NCBI GenBank assembly: GCA_030295235.1
Contig: AP026123.1
Coordinates: forward strand, 1 to 64,000
Direction of reading: 5' to 3'
DNA length: 64,000 nt
Source of the DNA: Fistulifera solaris
Lineage: Eukaryota
Both the position numbers and the translations under genes were made by a program. How positions within the stretch are numbered: the first letter of the stretch is position 1; each line of letters begins with the position of its first letter. Under the pieces are notes generated by a model. The model saw nothing but the letters and a program-made list of their open reading frames with translations, was not told where the DNA came from and made no database searches. Below, one piece after another: positions 16,887 to 54,373 of the stretch.

Positions 16887-18442
16887 ATGCTCTGCATAAG
16901 GCGCGTATTCCTCTTCGGGGTTGCCTTATCAATCTTCCTTGCAACAGGCGATCTTGCTTCTTCTAGCGTGGAAACGGAGTCGCCTTACTGGATTGTAATT
17001 GATGGCGGTTCGACAGGAAGTCGATTGCATATTTTCGAGTTTACGGATAATCGTGTCGAGCGTCGAGGATCTTCACGAGCGAATTTCCCATTGAGCGCAT
17101 TCGGTCGTACCGGAGAGGATCTGTTAAAGCCTTTGAATGCAACAAAAGTAGCAGAGCATTTGTTGCCGACATTTGTGTTTGCTGCTGAAAAATTCCCCAA
17201 CAATATCATGCGTCGACGCCAGTTTATTACCAAGCTACGGCAGGAATGCGTCTTTTAGACGAAACTGAACAAGAGGCCGTGTACAATGCCTTATATCAAG
17301 GACTCATGGAATCGCCCGATTTCGTCTTTTCGAATCTACAACGCGAAAACATTGCTACTTTGTCCGGCGAAGCGGAGGGATTTTATGGAGCTGTCGCAGC
17401 GAATTATCTACAAGGAACAATTGATGTTGATTTGAATTTTATTGCAATAGATGCTGCCCCTGTAGGGGCCTTGGATATGGGAGGGTCGTCGACGCAGATT
17501 GTTTTTCTACCTTCACTTTCGCCGGCGTCATCAACCCCCGACAATTATTGGAGATCTTGTGTCAGTGATGACCTCATGACGCATGAACCGATTCTGATTG
17601 AAGCTGCTTTGCAGGACTGTCACAAGGCACAGTCGAATGAGCTGCCTTCTCGTCTGAATGGACCCGACTTTTTGCTACGTCGTACTTATCCTATGGCGTA
17701 GATCAATTCAGGGAAAGATTATATACTCTCTGGGTCAACGAGCATATGGAAAACATAAAATCGAATGAATGCGGCTCAGGAGTTGTCGAAAATCCGTGCT
17801 CGTTTCCGGGCTATTCTATCGAATGGATGGGGCACACCTTAAAAGGAACTGGAGATGCTGGCAAATGTATCGAGCAAGTCAAACGACTGATACCACATCC
17901 ACATCAGCCCGATCACGATCACAAACTTGGAACGCACGTTGGAGGCGTGGAACATCCGCAAGTGCAAGGAAAGTTCCTTGCCATGTCGCTCTACTTTTTT
18001 TACATTGGATAGTTTGCGAGTCCTTAGCGGGCATGAAGCGTTGGAGTTGTCTTGGCCCTCACCTAGTATCGCTGAACTTTATGACGCTTTGCCGGGACTT
18101 TGTAGTCGCGAATGGCATACTGATTTGTCAATTAATGGCAAGCATGAGTTCACGTCTAACGAAGTATTACCGCACAGATGTTTGGAAAGCGTGTATTTGG
18201 TGACTCTTCTGCGTGATGGCTTTGGCTTTTCGATGGACTCACGGGACATTACCTTCACCTTCCTTGTCGATGGAAACGAAGTCGAATGGGGCTTGGGCAT
18301 GGTACTAAGTCTGCATGCTGCACAGCACGCCCGTCATGAGATGGAGCAAGAAGATGATAGTAATTCGACACATCGTCGGGTTACCATCCCGAAAGTAGGA
18401 CAATATCTTTGGGAATTTCTGACAGAAAACTTTCTCTCGTGA
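16887..18442 (+). CDS. GDA1/CD39 family nucleoside diphosphatase (apyrase), several frameshifts
   Basis: Apyrase conserved regions IVIDGGSTGSR, ATAGMRLL, LSGEAEGFYG, GALDMGGSSTQI and VEWGLG. N-terminal hydrophobic anchor. Confidence 0.9.
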
Positions 18443-24059: not shown

Positions 24060-27000
24060 ATGTGTTAATGATGACAGCGATGTGTTACAGTGCAAACGCG
24101 GTCCCACAAGTACTTACCAAGACTTTTGATACCGATTCAGTTCCAGTTGGTGTCGACAATAGATGCTCAGCGTGCATCTCCCATGTCGCGAACGGACTTT
24201 ATTGGAAAACTACAGGAGACCAACTTGATTATCAAAGGCTTTGGCGGTAACCGCACCAGCAATGTGATGAAAGGCACTCTGAAATGGTCATGGGAAAATG
24301 ATGAGGGCAAGATGACATCATTCACGATTCCAAACTCATACTACGTACCAGACGGCAAAGTTCGACTTCTATCACCGCAACATTGGGCAAAATACACCGG
24401 AAACAAACTCTCTGGATGTGATACCACGAGCAAACATGCGATTCTGTATTGGGGCAGCAACAAGAAAACAATTCCGATTGATCCACGCTCAAACGCGTTG
24501 CAACGTTTACTCCGCCCCTGGCTTCCGCGAATTTCAAACCTTCTGCGCTTCAAGCATCGATTCCTGACGATGAAGACGACAATCCGCTTTGTTTCGATGC
24601 AAACACAGTCGACACAACACCTTCAGAGGGAGCGAGCGCAGATTCAGAGGGAGCTGAACCATTTCGCAGCCGCACAGTTGACTTCGAGTTCGAGGGCAAT
24701 CAACAACAACACAAACCGGTCATACAGGAAAGTGACACAACATCAAGTCAAACAGTTCCAGCAGCCAAATTGCTCACTTACCATCGTCTTTATGGTCATG
24801 CGCCAATGGAGAAGCTTCAGGAATTGGCGAAGCAAGGAGTTATTCCATACCGACTTGCAACGTGTCCGACACCGGTGTGCACCGCCCTGTTTTTACGGAA
24901 AAGCAACAAAGCGTCAGTGGCGAACGAAACCAGCTAAACAAAGCAAAACCCTTCACAAGCCTACTCACCCCGGCGAAGTTGTTGCTGTGGATCAAATGGT
25001 ATCACCCACGCCCTGGCCTCATTGCGCAGCTCACAGGAATCTTGACGACAAAACGCTATTTGTACGCCACCGTCTTCGCCGACCTTTATTCCAGCTTGAG
25101 TTATGTTCACCTGCAAAAGACACAAAGTGCGAGTGAGACCTTGGAAGCAAAACACGCTTTTGAACAATACGCTCGAAATTGTGGAGTCGAAAAGATCAAA
25201 CACTATCATGCCGACAATGGAATTTTCAATTCGAACACTTGGGTCAACGATTGCGTAACAAACGGTCAGGGACTTTCCTTTGCAGGAGTTGGAGCACATC
25301 ATCAAAATGGCAAAGCTGAACGCCGCATAGGACAATTGCAAGAACTCACTCGAGCGATGCTGATCGATGCACAACACAAGTGGCCGCAAGCCATCACAAC
25401 TCACCTGTGGCCTTATGCTTTGCGCATGGCAAACGATTCCATCAACCACATGCCAAACATGAAGCACCCTGAGCTCGTACTCCTTATCAACTCTTCAGCC
25501 TACACGGATATTCATTCGAATCCAATTCATTGGAAACCATTCGGTTGCCCAGTATTTGTTCTTGACGCCAGCTTCAAAGAGGAAAAAGTCGGATATTTCA
25601 CAAATGGCGTCTGCGCTCAGCACATCTCGGAATTTATTTGGGACGTTCTCCAGTACACAGCCGTTCTGTCGCCCTGGTACTGAACCCAGACACAAGACTC
25701 GTCAGTCCCCAGTTTCACGTCAAATTTGATTCGAAATTCCAAACTGTTCCGGACCTTGCGAAAACATGTTTGTGGCAACTCAAAGCCGGTTTTATTGCCG
25801 CTCCAAGCGCAAATCCTCAGCAATCCACGCCTACATTGTCGGATACACCTACTGCTCCACCCGCCGACCTCTCTCTGTTACCGATGCCGCTGCCGACCGC
25901 GCACCACCTGATGACAATGTTCCGTCCACCGATCGTCAACCTGAACCACTTTCCTCTCCATCGCCACCACAATCTCAGAGGGAGAGACGCAGCACTCGCC
26001 AACGACGTCCCGTTACTCGATTAATAGAGATCATGATCGCGAATGTTCGCTAGTGAAGTCAGTCAATCATCGGCCGACATCAAAGGGGAACTTTTTGCTT
26101 ACGAATCTCTTCAAACCGCCTCAGCAAAACTCAATCCACCGGATCCATTCTATGTTTTCAAAACGAGCGCCGACCCCGATTCAATGTATTTGCATCAAGC
26201 TCGCAAACAACCCGATTGGCCGGAGTTTTCCAAAGGCATGGACGCCCGAAATCGAGGATCAAATGGCAAATGGAAATTTCTCATTGTTTCCAAGGAGTCA
26301 AGTTCCAGAGGGAGCAACGATTCTACCAACAGTATGGCAACTTCGTCGCAAACGAGACACTATGACACGCGAAGTCAAGAAGTGGAAAGCGCGACTGACT
26401 ATTGATGGGTCACGGATGAAATATGGTCGCGACTATGAATTGACCTACTCTCCGGTTGCTAATTGGACTTCAATCCGCTTGTTACTAGCAATGGTGATCA
26501 TACATGGTTGGCATACTGAAGCAACTCGATTATGTTCAGGCATTTCCTCAGAGCCAGCGACAAAGAAATTTATCTGTCCATTCCGAAAGGATATACAATA
26601 CACGGAGCATCCCCCGGACGATTATGTTCTGAAAGTCCACAAGAATGTTTATGGAGCAAAGGATGCAAGTCGAACATGGTTCCTTTATTTGCGAAAGAAA
26701 CTATTTGAGATCGGTTTCAAGCAATCGGAATACGACGAATGTGTGTTTTACTACAAGAGCACGATGTATGTTCTACATACCGGCGACAGTATTCTTGGAG
26801 GTCCTAATGAAAAGGAAATTGAGGAAATTATTGAAAAGATGAAACAGATCAAACTAGACATTACAGTTGAGGGAGATTTATCGGATTTTCTGGGAGTTAA
26901 TATCAACAGGATCGATGAATCAACAATTGAATTGAAACAGCCACATCTCATCGACCGATAATCAAAGACATGAAATTCGACCAGAAGGAAGTTAAAACAA

Positions 27001-40335: not shown

Positions 40336-41810
40336 TTACATGAACATGTTCGAGTTAAAAGAATTCGGGGGTTCCAAGTGATCTGGATTGGGTTCGCCCG
40401 GAAACTGTTTGCGATTACTTCCACGTCCTCGAGGATCCCCTTCTGGGGGTCGTTGTCGTCGAGGGTCGCCCACTACAGGCCCGAATGGGTCAAAGCGGGG
40501 TTGCATCGACATGGCACCGTGGCCGCCATTCTCTTGAAACATTGGATGATCAGGGCCCATGAGATTGCCAGGGTAAATATTCCGCATCGGAAATTGTGGA
40601 CTGGGGTACAGATCACCAGCAAAATCACCAGGATGATGAGGCACTGGCGGACTGAGATGAAACGTCGGACGTCCGTCCGGACCTATCGTTTCGAAGCTGG
40701 TCGCGTCTCCGGCAGTGGCGCCGTGTGTGTAGGAAGAGGCAGCGGCACGGACTGCCGAGTGGGTAAAAAAGCGACCGTACTATCAACGTAAGGCTCCTTC
40801 TCTATGTTCTCCGTCTTGTACTGTCCCAAATCAAAAACGCTCCCAAACTGCGACAACAAATCAGCTACTTGCTTGTAATGCAAGATAGGTTCACTCGGTT
40901 TCGTAGCCCTGGCAAATGAATCTAGATTGAAATGTTGGGACAGCGGAAAGGATAAGGTGGGTGCGTCTTGCGTAGCACTATCATTTTGCTGTTGGGCTCT
41001 TGCGACAATATAACATGCAACGTGGGCTCCTGACTTGATTCGGTGGGCTGATTCTCTTGTCGTACCGTCAAAAAGAAAAACTCGATCGTTTCGATAACGC
41101 AATGTAATTTGATCTTTGTTGGGGACCCAAGGCTGCGGAAGAAACGTCGTTAAAGGGCGTACCGGAGCCGCAAATCCAGTCGTAGGCGCGGTCTCTGGGA
41201 TCCCGGTGCAAACAAAGCCATGTTGCAACAGCACGGCATGCAACAAAAGCGTCATAGCTTCCAGTGGCTCTGTAACACGAACACGTTGCTCCGCAAGAGT
41301 AGCAAACGAAGCCTGTGTCATTTCTTTCCCCCAAGCCGTTGTTGTCATTCCGCGTGCACTACCAATATCATTACCCGTCTCATTCTCATTTGAATCTGCA
41401 ATTACGTCTTCCCAGTCGTCCATGTTTTCGTCGTCGTTCGTGTAATCTGCGGAACGCATAAAAGAAGAATCTTTGTTTAAATCAGATAACAAAGGAACGC
41501 GTTTCTCTTGTTCGTTGATATCGATGCTGTCGCCGTTTAAATGATTGAATTCGTCCGTCAAGGCAGTTGTTGACGCAATCGCCGATGTCTTCGCGTCCTG
41601 TTGCTGAAATTTCTGCTGTAACACACGATCTCTAGCACGCTGACGCAATTCACGATCGATTCCTTGCAAAGCCGCAGCAATCGCCGGGTTCTCTTCGTTC
41701 TTGTTGCTTTGATTGCTGAACAAAGGGCACTTTAAAATGTAATCTCTGAGCAAATAGAAGTCCCTGTCTTCTTCATTCGTGCTATCGCTGTTGTTAAAGT
41801 TGTTTGTCAT
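40336..41810 (-). CDS. PSMF1: Proteasome inhibitor PI31-like protein (frameshifted)
   Basis: FP-domain-like LLLHAVLLQHGFVCTG. Pro-rich tail GNLMGPDHP, RFDPFGP and GEPNPDHLEPP, ending NMFM. Confidence 0.85.
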
Positions 41811-42630
41811 GTTGTTCTCTTTAATTAAAGGAATCCTTTTCAAGAAGAACGAGATGAATGAATGCATGAGAAAATTTGCGAATGTGCCTGTACCATCAGT
41901 ACTGGAGTCTACGTAAAAGGCGGTTTTATAAAAAATGTTGATGAGAACTGTCATGAACAAGATCTCTCGTAGGGGTCGGGGTATTCTAAATAGGTCCAGG
42001 GGAATCAAACAAGTACCTTGTACGAGCCCATGCCTGCACGAAATGATCTTATAATCTCGATGAATGCTTCTTCAATTGAATTTCAGACCAATTTCCAGGC
42101 AGTCTCGCTCGCCCGTTATTAGTACAGCTCCAACTGTAGACTGTAGGTCTAGCGTTACCACGACTGCTTTTAGTCATGAGTCAGTCAACAACGTTTCGGA
42201 AGTCGGAAATACGATGAATTCAGCCTCACTGTAAGTCCCATCTAATTCCTTACATTGCTTACTTCCGATGAGCACAATCATTATTGTTCTTTTACAATAA
42301 ATTCGTAGAGGGTGATGGCGAGAATTGGTGCCAACCAGACTGTTCTAACGATCACTATAGCGCCAAGTTAAGCTCAACTTTAACAAGACTGCAGTTCAGT
42401 CATGAGTCATGTTAATTACACACCGAGCAAAATAAAAACTGCGATAGCTACGTGTCGTCCTTGATCGCTTTAGCTTGTATCGCATTTTCCTCTTGCACTG
42501 CCAAGTACAACTGCAAAATAGAAAATGCCAACAAAATCTTTCTTTCGTTGCGCCAGTAATGGTTCGGAATACAGAAACTTACAACATTATTATTATTTGG
42601 GCTCCGTCACGTAAACTCGAAATGAAGTTT

Positions 42631-44130
42631 TCAGAGATGCAGCAACTCCGTTAACTGGTTTTGAATCCATTTCAGGATCGCTGCTGATGTCATTTGACCT
42701 GTATACAAGACCGGTCTTCGTTCTTTTGACAACACCAGATACAACGTCGGTGTTACTTCTACTTCAAAGCCGGCCTCTTCCATGGCAGGAGTAGGCTGAT
42801 CCACTGTAATGTCATACCGTGCTACCTGTATATTGTGATTTAGACCCCAGTCTTCACCGTGCTTCGCACCACTAACAACTTGTTCCATTGTTGGCGCAAA
42901 GTCTTGACATGCACCACACAACGGTGAATAAAATTCCAACAACAGCACGTTTGAAAGGGCCTCTATAACATCGAAAAATGTATCTGCCGTCAATTCGTAA
43001 TCGCATTCCAAACAGTCAATCGTCGGCAATTCGAACGCCACATTCTGGTGAACGGCTTCTTGTCTCATTGTTTCCAGTTTTTCCAGATGATGATGCATCC
43101 CACATTCTGTTTGATTTAAACCCACAAAACGTCCACTCCGTTCAGCCGCTGTACTCGCAACCGCTCGTGTCGTCATTGTATCCCCAATGCTTTTGTATCC
43201 CCGATCATGTAGTGGATTGTACGGGACATCGTGTTCGTGCAAATAGCTCCAGACTTGTTCGTAGGTCCAATCGGCCATCAAGTTTATTTTTAGTCGCTTG
43301 GGTCTGTCGGAAGCATCTTCTTGATCGAATTTCTCCCATTCTACAAATTGTAGTTGACTCCGTTCATCTCCTTGGTCACGACGTCGTCCCGTGAACCAAA
43401 CATGTGCCTGTAATTCGTCCAAAGCTCGTTGCAAGGGCTCCACTTTTGAATGAAAAGCGTATTTTTCAGGGTCGGTGCGATACAAATCATTACCGCCGTA
43501 GTATGCATCGAAAGCTTGTCGTGTGGGAGTTGCACTGCCCGGCACCTTGGGCGTAAAAACACGCAAATCCAGTTCTGGATAATGCTCTTGTACGGTATCG
43601 TAGAACTGATAAGTTTCCGGGAAAAGATGCAAGGTATCAATCGTTACAACGGTGATCAGCGATAACACATTCATTTGCGCCATGACATCAAGTAAGACCA
43701 TTCCGGTAGACCCAAGACTAGTGACTGAGATTACTTTGTGCTGTGGTTGTTGCTCGTAAACCCAGTAACTCAGTCGCTCTTGTAAGGAAAGAGGCGATAG
43801 ATAGTCATTGAGTTGTTGCAGCGTTTCAGAAGAAGGCGGAAAGGGAATTAGCAGAGGAGCTTTTCGTTGAGAAATCCTTGAAAAAGGTGTAGGAATTTGT
43901 ATCAGTCGAGCGGCGAGAAAAGGTAAGAAAAAGAAAGCAAACAAAATCCCTCTCGTCAATCGTCGCCGGCGTTGATAAAATATGCACAATCGCTGATAGA
44001 AAATGATTACGACCGAAAGTCGTTGAGATGCGTGGTGAATGCTTTGAATGTGATGATGATGCTGTTGTTGATTGTAATTATTCATTCTTGTGGTTTGCGA
44101 ATATTGATAGTGCTGTCTCGGATGCTTCAT
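42631..44130 (-). CDS. Membrane-anchored PAPS reductase (MET16/CysH type) fused to a C-terminal thioredoxin domain
   Basis: IDTLHLFPETY, KVEPL, TGRRRDQG, VPYNPLHDRGYKSIGD, ERSGR and catalytic ECGMH. Trx motif EFYSPLCGAC. Hydrophobic helix at about aa 61-78. Confidence 0.88.
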   Translation of the reverse strand: MKHPRQHYQYSQTTRMNNYNQQQHHHHIQSIHHASQRLSVVIIFYQRLCIFYQRRRRLTRGILFAFFFLPFLAARLIQIPTPFSRISQRKAPLLIPFPPSSETLQQLNDYLSPLSLQERLSYWVYEQQPQHKVISVTSLGSTGMVLLDVMAQMNVLSLITVVTIDTLHLFPETYQFYDTVQEHYPELDLRVFTPKVPGSATPTRQAFDAYYGGNDLYRTDPEKYAFHSKVEPLQRALDELQAHVWFTGRRRDQGDERSQLQFVEWEKFDQEDASDRPKRLKINLMADWTYEQVWSYLHEHDVPYNPLHDRGYKSIGDTMTTRAVASTAAERSGRFVGLNQTECGMHHHLEKLETMRQEAVHQNVAFELPTIDCLECDYELTADTFFDVIEALSNVLLLEFYSPLCGACQDFAPTMEQVVSGAKHGEDWGLNHNIQVARYDITVDQPTPAMEEAGFEVEVTPTLYLVLSKERRPVLYTGQMTSAAILKWIQNQLTELLHL

Positions 44131-44696
44131 TGCATTTACTCCGTTACATGAGAAAAAATCGACGACAGTTTATAACAAGAAGACAGGCAATTCTGAGCTT
44201 CTAACGCTTGAATTCAAATCTGAGTTCCTCCGTAGTCTAAATTTGCAAGCGAAAAAGGTACTACACAGGAGGAAGATAGAATAGAATGGGGAAAGGTGCA
44301 ATAAACCAATGCAATAGGAATGCGATTCTTGAATGAAAAGGGCGTCTCGCGTGCGACGATGTCGCCGAGGGCCGAGGGAAATAACTTACCGGTGTAGGGA
44401 AGACCCGGATGTTTTCAATCCCTATCCGCACGACCTAGTCTAGCTATACCAAGCGACTAAGCCTACCAAGCAGCTAACATCGACATAAACAGAAGCCCAA
44501 CGCAACTTCCACGTAGTCTCTGTAGGCACTTTGTTGGTCTGAGTGTTACTTATATCTTATAAAGCCAGCATTTTTTGGAATTCAACCTATCGTCCATCAT
44601 CAGTTGGTGCTAGTTACTGGCTACTAGCATCTTTATTCATGCTATAATTTCGTGAATGTATGATTCTACTATGATTTGGTTAGGGTGTCGATTAGC

Positions 44697-45806
44697 TTAC
44701 ACTCGCTGCTTCGACTTGAATGTTAACATTTCATCGCCAATTTCAGAATAGCCGTGGTCGTACAAGGGATTGTAAGGAATACGGTTGGTTCTCACATAGT
44801 TCCATATCTGCGCATTCGTCCAGTGTGCCAACGGATTGATCTTCAGTCGACCCGCATTGTCTAGTTCGAAACAACGCAATTCTCCATTTCGTGTGGTTTC
44901 ACGTGTGTCAGCCGTCAGATACACTGGCACATTCTCCAATGCCCGTTCCAGCGGTTCTGTAATAGTCAAATAGTCATATTGCGGTCGATCTTTTCTCCAA
45001 ATATTTCCAAAGTGTCTATCGAAAGCTTGTTTTTCGGTGAATCCAGCCGGTTGGTAGAACTGATAGCTCACATCTTTGTAATAATTTTGAATTCGTTGAA
45101 TCAAGTGGTAGGTTTCAGCGAATTGGTGCAAAGAGTCCATGGAAACGATGGGAAGGAGCAACTCGTGCTGGTGTGTTTCTGCCAGCAGAACCATACCGTG
45201 CACGGTGAATTGATTCCACTGAACAACATTGTACGTCTGCTGTCTTAGCCACTCGAGGATACTAGCTGTCGCACTATTCATTGCGGCATCTTCATTCGTA
45301 TTACCGGGACACAATTGCTCATTTAGCATATCTAAATCTTGTATCGTGGGTGGCATATTGTGAAGGGGTTTGTAGCGTCTCAAGTTCGAAGAAGAGGGGG
45401 CCGTTAGGGAAGTCTTGAACTTGGCCTGCGTAGAATTACTGTTCAATAACATGACCTTCCGATCCCAACGTAGGAATAAGACAGTCGGGACGATCAAACA
45501 TACCATCAAGAACAGTCCACGAGTGAGACAAGAGGGCAGAAGAGGTTGAGACTCGCAGGGGTAGCGAATTGGTTTGCGAGGGCGAGTACCCCGACGTAAG
45601 GTAGTTGTCACCAAACCATCCGTAGATGTCGTGCGAACAACACTACTACGGTTACAAGTACCGTTGATATTGTTACCGATGATGCTATTGTGACTACTGC
45701 TTTTTGGGCTGGGATGAGGACTTTGATGCAAGGGTAACAAAGCCGGTTCTCTGCGAGAATTCGGTCCCCAAGAGACATTTCGCTTCACGGGGCTTGTCAC
45801 TTGCAT
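44697..45806 (-). CDS. Membrane-anchored, degenerate PAPS-reductase-like protein lacking ECG
   Basis: MDSLHQFAETY, YDYLTITEPLERAL, LKINPLAHWT and IPYNPLYDHGYSEIGD. Stops before ERxGR/ECG. TM LFLMVCLIVPTVLFL. Confidence 0.8.
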   Translation of the reverse strand: MQVTSPVKRNVSWGPNSRREPALLPLHQSPHPSPKSSSHNSIIGNNINGTCNRSSVVRTTSTDGLVTTTLRRGTRPRKPIRYPCESQPLLPSCLTRGLFLMVCLIVPTVLFLRWDRKVMLLNSNSTQAKFKTSLTAPSSSNLRRYKPLHNMPPTIQDLDMLNEQLCPGNTNEDAAMNSATASILEWLRQQTYNVVQWNQFTVHGMVLLAETHQHELLLPIVSMDSLHQFAETYHLIQRIQNYYKDVSYQFYQPAGFTEKQAFDRHFGNIWRKDRPQYDYLTITEPLERALENVPVYLTADTRETTRNGELRCFELDNAGRLKINPLAHWTNAQIWNYVRTNRIPYNPLYDHGYSEIGDEMLTFKSKQRV

Positions 45807-50144: not shown

Positions 50145-53100
50145 TCATAGACATAGCCCTAGACTACTAAATTCATTCCTTTTGCTTGGATTCAACTTTC
50201 TTTTCGTCGCACCACTCTTTTGTTTACCTCTACCACCGCTGCTGCCGTTGAGATCCAGATTCCATTTACCATCCTGTTTGCGATTGGTTTCAATAGACCG
50301 CGCTGCTCCGTACGTATCTTCCCCACCCGAATGTTGGGGATTCTTACAGTCACCATTCGCATCCACTAGCTTACCCCAGCGGTTCCTTTTTGTGTCTTTC
50401 ACTCTTAGTTCAACCGGACCATGAGCGAAAACGCACTTGTTCTTTTGCGCATAGGGCAGCTCGTTCCGTAGCTTACATCCCAGTGGTTGCACAATCGTGT
50501 CCGAAATTTGGGGTCTTCGGCGCATCGCTCCAAATTCGTGTCGCGCTTTCGTAAGCTTGCGTCTACCCGTCGTATCCATTCTTCGTCGGAACGACTCCAG
50601 CCACGGCAATGCAGTGATCGTGCAGCTGTACTTCCGTGCCAAATGATTACATCGCCAACCGTATTTACATCCAACGGCAAAGAACTGACGTCTTCAGAAT
50701 TACTGGCGCTGCGTAATATCGTTCCGGCTGCATCAGCAAATCTTTGTGGATCGGATTCTAGAGGAGATTCTGGGATCATTTCCGGTACATTTTGCCGAGA
50801 AAATACCGTGGCATGACGGTCTTTTGTAGGCGTCCCTTCTCCTCGTTCGTCTACTTCGACTACTTCTGCAAGAGCTTTGTCACCAAATCTCTTCTTTTGT
50901 CCGTAGTGAGCTATGTTATATTTCACAGAGAGAGGATCGTCGACAGACAGGTATTCACGACAAAAATTGTAGCAGTGGATCAACAGCCGGGGAAAACGCT
51001 GTTCAAAGTACTCCAACAATCCATCTGTTTTCGACTTGAGGGTGATCTTCAAATTGTCGGACATTTCGTCAAAGTGATGATGTTTGTTCCGCATAAGCCG
51101 GAGTAGATCACGCACCGAAGATGGGTCATACGTACGAAAGCGCTGAACATTACTAAGAAGCTCGGGCTCCAGTCCGTTATCCCAAGAAGTTCCAACTACC
51201 TGAGCAGCTCCTTGTTCTACAGCAAGGAGACGTGTCATGGTCTGAGAAGTAACATCGTAGTCCATTTCTAGGCGATCCGAGAATTCACACAAGAATGCAA
51301 GGCGACGTTCGGCAGACCAGAAGAAAGGATGCTCACATACTTGAGAAGCTGTTGGGCGAAGTAAAGGATTACGCTGAAGCATGGAAGCCACCAAATCATA
51401 AGCATCCAGCGATATGTTTTTGAGGGCGTCAAGTTGAGGCCGATTGTGCATAATGTTTGCTTCCCTTTCGTACCATTCTCCAAATGGGTGCGAGCCTGGT
51501 TTCAAAGTTGAGTAGAAAATACAGCCCAGCGAGAAAATGTCTACCGATCGACTAGTTCGACCGCTTAGACAGTTGTCAGCAGGAGATGAGCCAGAAGCAG
51601 ATTCTGGATTCATGCTGCCTTCCGAACGGACGCTTCCGTCCGACGGTATCCGCCTTGCCATTACCTCAGGTGCCTGCCAACCAACACTTCCTGGACCCGC
51701 TTCAGCGAAAGACGCCTTCTCCCCGTTCGATACGCCTCTTAACGACGACTCATTCAGTAAACTAGCTCCGTAGCTACTTTGGCCAACCAGCTGCTTTCCT
51801 AGTCCCATATCCGAGATCTTCGCTACATAAAGCCCGCGCTCGAACAGTCTGATAGGGCTTTCATCATCTTTTTGACGTCCTTCCTCTTCGACTTTTGATT
51901 CCGCATATCGGCGAGCAGAATATTCGCTGGTTTCAAATCGCGATGCACGATTCGTAACCGATGCAGATGTCGCACACCATTAGCAATTTGCACGAGCAAT
52001 GATCGCGCTGCTGCCAGAGATCTAACTTGTGGTTCGCTGCAGAGTGCACCAATGAGATCGTGCAGCGATAAATCGCACAATTCCAGGGCTAAGTAAACAA
52101 AATCACCACGTGTTTCTTTCAAAAAGTATCGCACAACATTGGCGTGTCCGTCACTTTCAATCAGCAATGAAATTTCTCTATCCGCGCTGGCATGGTAAGC
52201 TTTAAGCATTCGCTTGACTGCTACTTGTCGACCGTCCAGCAGGCCTTTGAACACCACTGTTCCGTGTCCGCCATAGCCGAGAATAACATCGTCGTATACT
52301 TGGATCACCCCACCTTCTTCGGTAGGCAACGTAGATGATGACACGTCCCCACTTTCCGCCAAATCTTTCAGCCGCTTCCGTCGTCCCATTTCAAATGATA
52401 CAACAAAAATCAGCGCTACCGTTGGTGGCAGCCATGAACCCAATATTCTCAGAATCTTGTGCTGTTTTCTCTTTTCAGTTACAGGTATGTGATAATAAGA
52501 TGGTATGTATCCATAATCAGGATGAAACAATGGGACAATCGCAGTATCCTCTGTGTATTCTCCCACTAACATTGGAGCAAACGGATTCTGTCCCGCATCG
52601 AAAAGACAAGCCGGAAACTTGGCATTGCCCGGATGACAACTACGGACTTCGTCTACGTGCACTTCGCCATTACTGGTTATTTCCGGTCGATCGGGGCCGT
52701 CAATGATATTCTCTTTTGACTCGTCGTGCATCGGCGAATGATACTTGAGAGGCATTGCGTACAGTTGTCCTGACGGAAGTGCCGCAATAATTGTTTGTTC
52801 GTCAACTGTTGAAGAGGCCTGGAGCTGTCGCTGAATCTCTCTAAGTAGATACTCCGGTGAGTTGTTTGGTATGGCAGGATCCGGAATGATCGTCACGGGC
52901 AAACTAGAGCCTGACGCCACATCTACGGCAAATGCAACCGGCGACTCAAAAAAGTCATCTGCCATCCAAAGAATATTACTTTCCTGTCGAAACGCCAATA
53001 CTCCACTTGGAGTTGCAAATAGGGAACCTTTGTTTCCATCTCTCGCAAGTGGCAATCTCGAATCCGAGTACGCACCTGGTTCGGGCGGTTCCCACGGTTG

Positions 53101-54060
53101 TCCACTTCCCAACACCATGTCATTTATCGATAAGATACTTCCTTGCGTAAATTGGACATCCATAATACCCCGTCTTGGTTCTTGAATGGATATGGTTTGA
53201 TCCACACGTCCCAACCACACAACATACGTTTCGTCATGAGACGGATTGCTGCACGTCTCACCCGAAATGTGCTGCAGAATTTTCCCAGTGCGACTATCGA
53301 TGGAAACCGCCATGCTGTGTCGACTTCCGGTATAAATACGGCCCCGATTATCAACAAACGGCACCCGTGATACAAGCTCACTCATGGTAGTCGTGACAGT
53401 AACCTCATCTGTGGCTTGTCGATCAAGCATGCCATCGCGGAGAGGAGCTGTCAAATGTACTTTTCCATCAATGGAGGGAACCGCGGACGTTTTCCAAACA
53501 AACTCCTCCTCTTTTGCTGTTGATTTGGTCGTTGTAGAAATAAGGGGCGCCAATAAGGAAGCCTCTGCTGCCGCTGTTTGTCGATCCTGAAATTCGTGGA
53601 CATTCTCTTGCGAAGATGTCCGCCAAACTGTTTTTCCTGTCGATCGTGAAATACCTGCCATCGTGCCATCCACCGCCACCACGACTAGTATGTCACTGTA
53701 GTCCGCAGTATCGTTATTTTCTTCCTCATCCTCGGTTCCATCTGTGGTTGAGTAGCGCGAAAAGTCATCGTAGTACTGTTGCAATGATGTATCTTTTTCG
53801 TTTGTTTCAAGGACTTTGGTCGATTGCCGCATCGGTTTATCATTTAAGTGTAAAGTGGTTAAATCCGCACCTACTTTCCGTTTGGTGTGAGCAGTCTCTG
53901 ACGAAGAAGGATGCAAAGACGTAGCCGCCGCAGTTTTTGCCGAGGCTAACGTTGTGTGCTGCCAAAGAGCCGCATTCAGAAACAATAATGCTTGCACGAG
54001 AACAAACTTGTTTCTGTGTTGCTTTATAGAAAAAGCGCACTTGTCTCTATTCGCCATCAT
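50145..54060 (-). CDS. IRE1: IRE1 ER-stress kinase/endoribonuclease with C-terminal CCCH zinc finger (2 frameshifts)
   Basis: Signal-like segment; lumenal domain (VVVAVDGTM, VPSIDG, IYTGSR); TM. Kinase LGYGGHGTVVFKG, VAVKRM, ESDGHANVVRY, HRDLKPAN, ISDMGL, GWQAPE. KEN domain RDLLRLMRNKHHH. Confidence 0.93.
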
Positions 54061-54373
54061 CTCGTTAGACTTTGATGTAAGTAAGTATTTCCGATTAATG
54101 TTCAGAAAGCGAAAAGCGGTAGAGGAGGGTTCTCCGAGCTTCCTAGTGTCATCAAATTGTCCTTGAAGACTTCGTAGCAAATAAATGAGGCGTTCCGCTG
54201 TCTCGTGCCCAAGACTCCTAATTTGCAAGCTGTCTCCTGGTTAATTGTATAAAAGGATCGATTAGCAACTAAAAATGAACCAAGCGAGGAGCGAAGTGAA
54301 ATATTATCATCATCGATGACGGCAAGCATTAAACGGAAATACTGGTAAGAGCCGCAGCCAATCAAAACTGTTC

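Follow-up and report, generated by a model that had tools for sequence, protein, structure and literature searches.

A predicted membrane-anchored PAPS reductase with a fused thioredoxin domain in Fistulifera solaris

Sulfate reduction in eukaryotes has been assigned to the plastid, the cytosol or the mitochondrion (PMC2275785), and the question raised by one gene of the pennate diatom Fistulifera solaris is whether the endomembrane system would have to be added to these sites. The gene lies within the first 64,000 nucleotides of contig AP026123.1 (GenBank assembly GCA_030295235.1; this whole stretch is referred to as the window) and encodes the protein P0001, in which a reductase domain for 3'-phosphoadenosine 5'-phosphosulfate (PAPS) or adenosine 5'-phosphosulfate (APS) is preceded by a membrane helix and followed by a thioredoxin domain. 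The current analysis revealed that the anchor is real and is a conserved trait of the family. The protein could be a type II PAPS reductase of the Golgi or endoplasmic reticulum (ER), with a cytosolic tail, with catalytic and thioredoxin domains that face the lumen and with sulfite made outside the plastid, a reading that appears about evenly poised between right and wrong.

The gene consists of a single frame with Met residues at positions 1, 16 and then only 144. A sequence-only reading of this DNA had noticed a basic cluster and a hydrophobic helix about 60 residues from the start with no Met nearby, and both are indeed present, RRRR at residues 54-57 and the helix at residues 61-77. The 17-residue Kyte-Doolittle hydropathy of the helix is 2.18 (peak elsewhere in the protein, 1.77), a value matched by 24 of 2,000 shuffled sequences, with the other 1,976 staying below it. 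One internal helix, flanked N-terminally by basic residues, is what would be expected of a type II membrane enzyme of the secretory pathway. The AlphaFold model, based on 83 sequences (predicted local distance difference test [pLDDT] score of 86.8), shows one helix (residues 40-76) and, beyond a stem modeled with low confidence, two folded domains; a search of the ESM Atlas with residues 1-110 returned no usable match. The PF01507 match spans residues 134-323 (E value, 5e-42; 144 bits with a cut-off of 22.5), and the scores with the cysH profiles TIGR00434 (200) and NF002537 (210) exceed the respective cut-offs of 165 and 154. The segments YAFHSK and GDTMTT occupy the sites of the CC and CxxC pairs in the CC-x80-CxxC motif of Fe-S-containing APS reductases (APRs), as these motifs are defined in the legend to Fig. 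4 of PMC2275785. The sequence-only reading had also described a complete MET16/CysH-type domain without the Fe-S pair, followed by the ECG motif and a CGAC thioredoxin, and this architecture holds: the E, C and G of the ECG motif (Cys343) are invariant in all 83 aligned members, as are both Cys residues of the CGAC motif (residues 405-408) in the thioredoxin domain (PF00085, residues 379-490). The only N-x-T sequon of the protein is at Asn339, four residues ahead of the catalytic Cys. This sequon, a second Cys pair in the linker (373/376) and the paralogue directly upstream add to what the sequence-only reading had noticed. By sequence and by fold alike, the top-ranking structure is yeast PAPS reductase (2oq2).

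The family set comprised 382 rows (381 proteins and the L004 frame), of which 342 span the catalytic domain and 334 are distinct. In the FastTree tree, the query belongs to a clade of 156 rows (support, 0.94); removal of nine truncated-paralogue rows and four shortened duplicates left 143. Among the sequences with a long N terminus (at least 40 residues ahead of the domain), the helix was found in 96 of the 110 clade members versus 2 of 18 outside the clade, bearing out the expectation that orthologues would keep it. The anchor begins at a median position of residue 50, and in 72 of the 96 it is internal, starting at residue 25 or later. More positive charge lies N-terminal to the helix in 62 of these 72 proteins, and the bias persists after thinning to <70% identity (36 of 45 representatives). 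Two adjacent basic residues lie no more than 10 residues from the helix in 34 of the 45. This bias would therefore place both domains in the lumen. No N-terminal signal peptide and no plastid leader was seen, and an ASAFAP-like pattern follows the helix in only 3 of the 45 representatives, so the bipartite plastid leader that had been considered as an alternative is not supported. A thioredoxin domain is present in 112 of the 143 clade members, none of which has a C-terminal helix and 92 of which carry a Cys pair in the linker; the thioredoxin CxxC is found in none of the 178 sequences outside the clade. Members with a named source derive from both centric and pennate diatoms, from Symbiodiniaceae (dinoflagellates) and from Pyramimonas and Paulinella. 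The 14 exceptions include several proteins with a helix just below the threshold or with a cut-off hydrophobic start, and some that truly lack an anchor. Anchor-less members nested in the clade are P0157, P0264 to P0268, P0090, P0094 and P0097; some of these also lack thioredoxin, and several end in ECGC rather than ECGxH. P0158, P0093, P0098 and P0101 have no thioredoxin but a basic C-terminal tail, and the starts of P0158 and P0093 resemble a mitochondrial presequence and a signal peptide, respectively.

The public models of both homoeologues (352 and 356 aa) are too short, because their start at Met144 cuts off the P-loop. The close relatives P0130 and P0131, from other assemblies, have the same MKHPRQ start and keep the helix, which is also retained in the transcript-derived members marked as complete (P0020, P0023 and P0045). 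When the gene was searched by pattern for in-frame donor/acceptor pairs, none was able to splice out the helix, which leaves removal of the anchor by splicing, another possibility raised at the outset, without a suitable splice pair. The genome is organized as paired contigs, with the reductase present as two homoeologues, and the copy on contig C4 contains one extra T within a T run, inside the helix codons. This one-base shift is probably an assembly slip. Pseudogenization of the C4 copy was considered but is disfavored: the shift lies in a T run, both flanks are conserved, and similar single-base shifts occur in other genes. The FAD synthase on contig C29 and both copies of the PAPS synthase described below are likewise broken by single-base shifts. 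The assembly looks indel-prone, which may explain the truncated public models. Single-base frameshifts in short runs affect several housekeeping genes (L001, L008/L009 and L016/L017). One sequencing run (X1) covers genes and spacers alike, as expected for DNA; three runs from one study, guessed to be RNA (X2 to X4), cover patches of the reductase gene, with its 5' end outside them.

Table 1. Features of the reductase gene and its tandem paralogue (positions in the window)
Feature	Position	Strand	Basis or remark
Whole gene	42631..44130	-	Single frame, 499 aa (P0001): tail, anchor, stem, PAPS reductase, linker CxxC, thioredoxin
N-terminal tail, residues 1-59	43954..44130	-	Predicted cytosolic; Gln/His-rich start, then helix continuing into anchor
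RRRR basic cluster, residues 54-57, N-terminal to anchor	43960..43971	-	Sequence motif
Hydrophobic signal-anchor helix, residues 61-77	43900..43950	-	Hydropathy, family comparison
Short stem, residues 79-100	43831..43896	-	Low confidence in structure model
Sulfonucleotide reductase domain without Fe-S cysteines	43081..43830	-	Nearest solved structure, yeast PAPS reductase 2oq2
P-loop without acidic residue (fungal PAPR-like; Asp in APR-B rows)	43702..43722	-	Alignment
Catalytic ECG (Cys343) and preceding N-x-T sequon Asn339 (43114-43116)	43093..43116	-	Motif, alignment
Linker Cys pair, 373/376	43003..43014	-	Motif
Thioredoxin/PDI-like domain; CGAC at 42907-42918	42661..42996	-	PF00085 profile match, alignment
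Tandem paralogue P0002, 369 aa, directly upstream	44697..45806 (45806->44697)	-	Tail, anchor 45471-45518, reductase fold; no thioredoxin

As for the substrate, acidic residues in the P-loop would select APS. Such a residue is absent from all 96 anchored members and from the 6 named fungi but is present in all 6 APR-B rows and in 56 of the 87 Fe-S rows; the CC or CxxC Fe-S motif was not found in any of the 156 clade rows. A second tree, built with IQ-TREE, contained 64 hand-chosen rows, with 5 of the 7 "fungal" rows named, the root not fixed and the APR-B group built around L004 in place of the moss sequence itself. In this tree, the 30 sampled clade rows are monophyletic (support, 97/89) and join the fungal PAPS reductases (PAPRs) at 96/84, whereas APR-B stands apart at 100/99; the clade does not group with the moss/plastid APR-B-type sequences. 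With the fungal PAPS reductase profile TIGR02057, the query scores 196.5, below the cut-off of 254.2, and four other members score 168 to 240. Judging by the tree and the P-loop, PAPS is favored over APS as the substrate.

Fungal Met16 (2oq2, 7rge; TIGR02057) shares with the query the P-loop type, the Arg-loop, the GDxxxT and ECG motifs and the neighborhood in the tree, but it is soluble, about 250-270 aa long and uses free thioredoxin; with its anchor and fused thioredoxin, the query does not conform to this single-domain form. APR-B (Physcomitrium, 4bwv), represented in this genome by the plastid APR-B-thioredoxin L003/L004, similarly lacks the Fe-S cysteines and in diatoms also carries a fused thioredoxin domain, but it differs in forming a separate clade and in having a P-loop Asp, a bipartite plastid leader, CQFS at the position of CxxC and no linker Cys pair. 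Plant APR (TIGR00424) likewise combines a reductase and a C-terminal thioredoxin-like domain in one chain, but it requires the Fe-S motif and is located in the plastid, and the query reaches only 83 bits with a cut-off of 553. The tail-helix-stem-catalytic layout itself is that of Golgi type II sulfotransferases (PF03567; seen by eye in 5 of the 7 loci of this genome that were inspected), which have no sequence relation to the query. We know of no Golgi type II enzyme that reduces a sulfonucleotide.

The anchored proteins and the known second "APR" of diatoms very probably belong to one orthologous group. The Thalassiosira pseudonana protein XP_002295733.1, which may correspond to gene ID 24887, falls in the 90% cluster of the anchored P0064; the public model has 277 aa and no tail, anchor or thioredoxin, whereas the full frame encodes 560 aa and includes the anchor. 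This second APR, or "additional stramenopile isoform" (PMC2275785; PMC3901274; APR2 in PMC3986220), has, like the query, an Fe-S-free reductase and a C-terminal CxxC thioredoxin. Two plastid Fe-S-free APRs were assigned to T. pseudonana in PMC2275785, while PMC3901274 mentions thioredoxin in both diatom reductases and calls one of them probably cytosolic. Thus, the second enzyme has been described as APS-reducing and either plastidic (Patron table) or probably cytosolic (PMC3901274), which differs from the present reading. APR2 was reported to be induced by salinity only (PMC3986220), and algae are said to use APS only (PMC11350084). Fusion of the reductase to thioredoxin has been reported before in diatoms; a literature search limited largely to journals outside subscription located no mention of an anchor for the reductase or for PAPS synthase. 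What appears to be new is a predicted membrane anchor on a known enzyme class and, as detailed below, a similarly anchored enzyme upstream in the pathway.

The sole APS kinase found in the genome (two homoeologous copies, L016/L017, on contigs C4 and C3) is part of an APS kinase-ATP sulfurylase-pyrophosphatase fusion. At its N terminus (L016:926-1145), this PAPS synthase has a short first exon followed by a tail, a helix of 17 residues and a stem that contains Cys; a plastid motif of the Phe type is absent. A metagenome scan yielded 80 related loci, 78 of them with a readable P-loop; 41 of these were distinct, and 37 had at least 90 residues before the P-loop. The helix was recognized in 31 of the 37, a count that is biased because one of the six scan patterns lay on the anchor; the remaining six look 5'-cut or unrelated. 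In the distant loci L089, L090, L092 and L093, the helix differs, a Tyr motif lies close to the start and the stem contains CPxC repeats. Stems are Ser/Thr/Pro-rich, with 2 to 6 Cys residues in all 54 scored proteins, and a Tyr-x-x-hydrophobic motif occurs near the start, in the same frame, in 29 of 58 relatives. Among the relatives L018 to L095, the Tyr-motif tail is conserved and the membrane helix unusually so. An ESM Atlas search with the PAPS synthase matched only APS kinase clusters, and the single-sequence fold of its N terminus was poor (pLDDT, 44.5). The triple fusion has been listed as plastidic for T. pseudonana (PMC2275785) and called plastidic elsewhere (PMC3901274). It has also been treated as a puzzle, since sulfate reduction in algae was assumed to proceed without its kinase (PMC3734648), and no plastid APS kinase was known to the authors of PMC9546453.

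A complete plastid route is encoded separately: ATP sulfurylase L104, APR-B L003 and L100, read by eye as sulfite reductase, all have a signal peptide and an AF-type leader. Since L100 is the only sulfite reductase found and carries a plastid leader, sulfite from the anchored enzyme is most likely not a direct feed for cysteine synthesis. The family chemistry proceeds in two steps, formation of an enzyme-thiosulfonate and thioredoxin-dependent release of sulfite (PMC1175818). In the anchored reductase, PAPS would bind to the P-loop and the Arg-loop, whose residues are present, and Cys343 would attack the sulfur, releasing adenosine 3',5'-bisphosphate (PAP) and leaving enzyme-S-SO3. The fused CGAC domain would then free sulfite and become oxidized, a step established for free thioredoxin and here proposed to occur in cis; lumenal thiols might re-reduce it, perhaps via the linker CxxC. 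PAPS could be supplied by the anchored kinase-sulfurylase-pyrophosphatase fusion if the two enzymes share a compartment, in which the fused thioredoxin and pyrophosphatase would replace helpers lacking there as free proteins. The sulfite could serve sulfonate (cysteate/DHPS-type) or S-sulfo products outside the plastid, and the reaction might secondarily drain excess PAPS.

Several observations weigh against this scheme. Members of about 250 aa without anchor or thioredoxin nest inside the clade. Outside Asn339, the 56 representatives contain 64 sequons versus 70 reversed-motif controls; another count, without the reversed control, gave 168 versus 158 expected, and with this control the only excess is at the site before ECG. 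That sequon is kept in 35 of the 56 representatives (5 of 94 outside the clade), and a glycan there, beside the catalytic Cys, could be a hindrance, so that this site can be read either for or against the lumen. The PDI-likeness of the thioredoxin domain does not discriminate for the lumen, because the thioredoxin domain of plastid APR-B is PDI-like too. The lumen is oxidizing, and no reductant was identified. In PAPS synthase, the charge bias is the opposite one, with 23 of 31 proteins carrying more positive charge C-terminal to the helix. The UAA transporter family has 40 family-level matches in the genome, so that PAPS from the cytosol could enter by the customary import route. ComA has no genome match, and no sulfite-consuming partner was identified. 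Finally, the absence of Fe-S is said to leave the substrate unfixed (PMC2275785). The original proposal of a secretory-pathway reductase is partly supported, by the conserved anchor, the lack of a plastid leader and the PAPS type favored by tree and P-loop; sequon enrichment and PDI-likeness do not discriminate for or against the lumen, and Golgi residence, a lumenal orientation and a role in tuning PAPS or supplying sulfite are proposals.

Some of the same observations would suit an enzyme anchored in the ER or Golgi membrane with its catalytic domains in the cytosol, where, together with a cytosol-facing PAPS synthase, it could form a surface module beside PAPS transporters and release cytosolic sulfite. 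Such an arrangement would amount to the "cytosolic" isoform of the literature with an anchor added, would have a simple supply of reductant and ATP and would agree with the unenriched sequons, the tail-out charge of the synthase, the nested anchor-less members and the UAA-family transporters. It is nevertheless unlikely, given the strongly tail-in charge of the reductase and the depth at which its anchor typically begins; the Cys-rich, Ser/Thr/Pro-rich stems of the synthase also resemble lumenal stems. The anchor data fit the chloroplast ER equally well, because this membrane is topologically ER, and a type II protein there or in the periplastid space could pass sulfite into the stroma for sulfite reductase as a second assimilatory entry. 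The plastid targeting of the only sulfite reductase found, the argument for entry of PAPS into the diatom plastid via the chloroplast ER membrane (PMC9546453) and the count of two plastid APRs in T. pseudonana (PMC2275785) point that way, but a complete stromal route is already present. Members are also found in Pyramimonas and Paulinella, neither of which is known to have a chloroplast ER, and this location seems improbable.

An anchored enzyme that is specific for APS, or dual, like moss APR-B, would compete with APS kinase rather than follow it. Both diatom isoforms have been treated as APR-B-type (PMC2275785; PMC3901274), diatom extracts show high APS activity, and 4bwv is the third match by sequence. 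Against this stand the grouping with fungal PAPRs, the first rank of yeast PAPR by sequence and by fold, and the P-loop type (a literature search yielded no paper on P-loop determinants); the plastid isoform would account for the APS activity of extracts, and this option, too, appears rather improbable. Very improbable is a mitochondrial membrane protein, in which the helix would act as a stop-transfer signal behind a presequence formed by the Arg/Ser-rich tail. Arg makes up 12% and Ser 14% of the tails, mitochondrial sulfate reduction occurs in Euglena (PMC2275785), and, by eye, the anchor-less P0158 has a presequence-like start; however, 40 of the 45 tails have an acidic residue within the first 30, their lengths vary widely, and the tail of the query is Gln/His/Tyr-rich.

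Under the type II secretory-pathway reading, these algae would carry out sulfate activation and reduction on or within secretory membranes, besides the plastid. In its fullest form, which is rather unlikely, diatoms and other marine algae would possess a self-contained lumenal module, in which the anchored synthase makes PAPS in situ rather than importing it and the anchored reductase turns part of it into sulfite. The reductase might then be the missing half of the presumed PAPS-to-cysteate step that leads to DHPS and other marine sulfonates or, viewed from the thiol side, an oxygen-independent disulfide-forming enzyme with PAPS as the terminal acceptor. QSOX, with its PDI-like domain linked to a terminal electron acceptor, would be a mechanistic analogue, unrelated in sequence. 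A NADPH-consuming PAPS-to-cysteate step for 2,3-dihydroxypropane-1-sulfonate (DHPS) is part of a T. pseudonana model (10.1101/2020.10.26.355578), and the anchored reductase would be a testable candidate gene for the sulfite required by sulfonate synthesis. If conserved in this location, the reductase would make the endomembrane system a fourth site of sulfate reduction and would correct the reading of both the second diatom "APR," with its shortened public models, and the "plastidic" triple-fusion PAPS synthase. Model diatoms are amenable to tagging and knockout, which makes a direct test feasible.

Directly upstream of the reductase gene lies its tandem paralogue, P0002, which was found only in close relatives. 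It has altered P-loop and Arg-loop sequences and ends before ECG, so that the catalytic Cys is absent; this terminus is kept in four relatives with 65-94% identity. In three runs of one study, tentatively taken as RNA, contigs span the gene without a joint, and one contig has a poly-T loose end at 44648. The dN/dS ratio between homoeologues is 0.086 (369 codons); in the main part of the query, the corresponding value is 0.146. P0002 is therefore probably an anchored pseudoenzyme maintained under purifying selection, perhaps, as a guess, a regulatory or dimer partner.

No sulfur gene cluster was detected among the 28 of 43 long frames scanned in the window. Elsewhere in the genome, sulfate transporters have 21 family-level matches, and no Golgi PAP phosphatase could be named among 14 inositol-phosphatase-family matches (N termini of 7 loci examined). 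One protein of the inositol monophosphatase family (L115/L116, on C11 and C12) has a long acidic Pro-rich N terminus and a tandem second copy with a short hydrophobic start. The FAD synthase-like PF01507 protein L007 (C27), with a signal peptide and an AF-type leader, is probably directed to the plastid. Ordinary neighbors of the reductase gene in the window are a GDA1/CD39 nucleoside phosphatase (17189-18439, + strand), an RVT_2 retroelement frame (25945-26958, + strand), a PI31 proteasome regulator (40686-41813, - strand) and an IRE1-like protein with kinase and RNase 2-5A domains (50408-54240, - strand).
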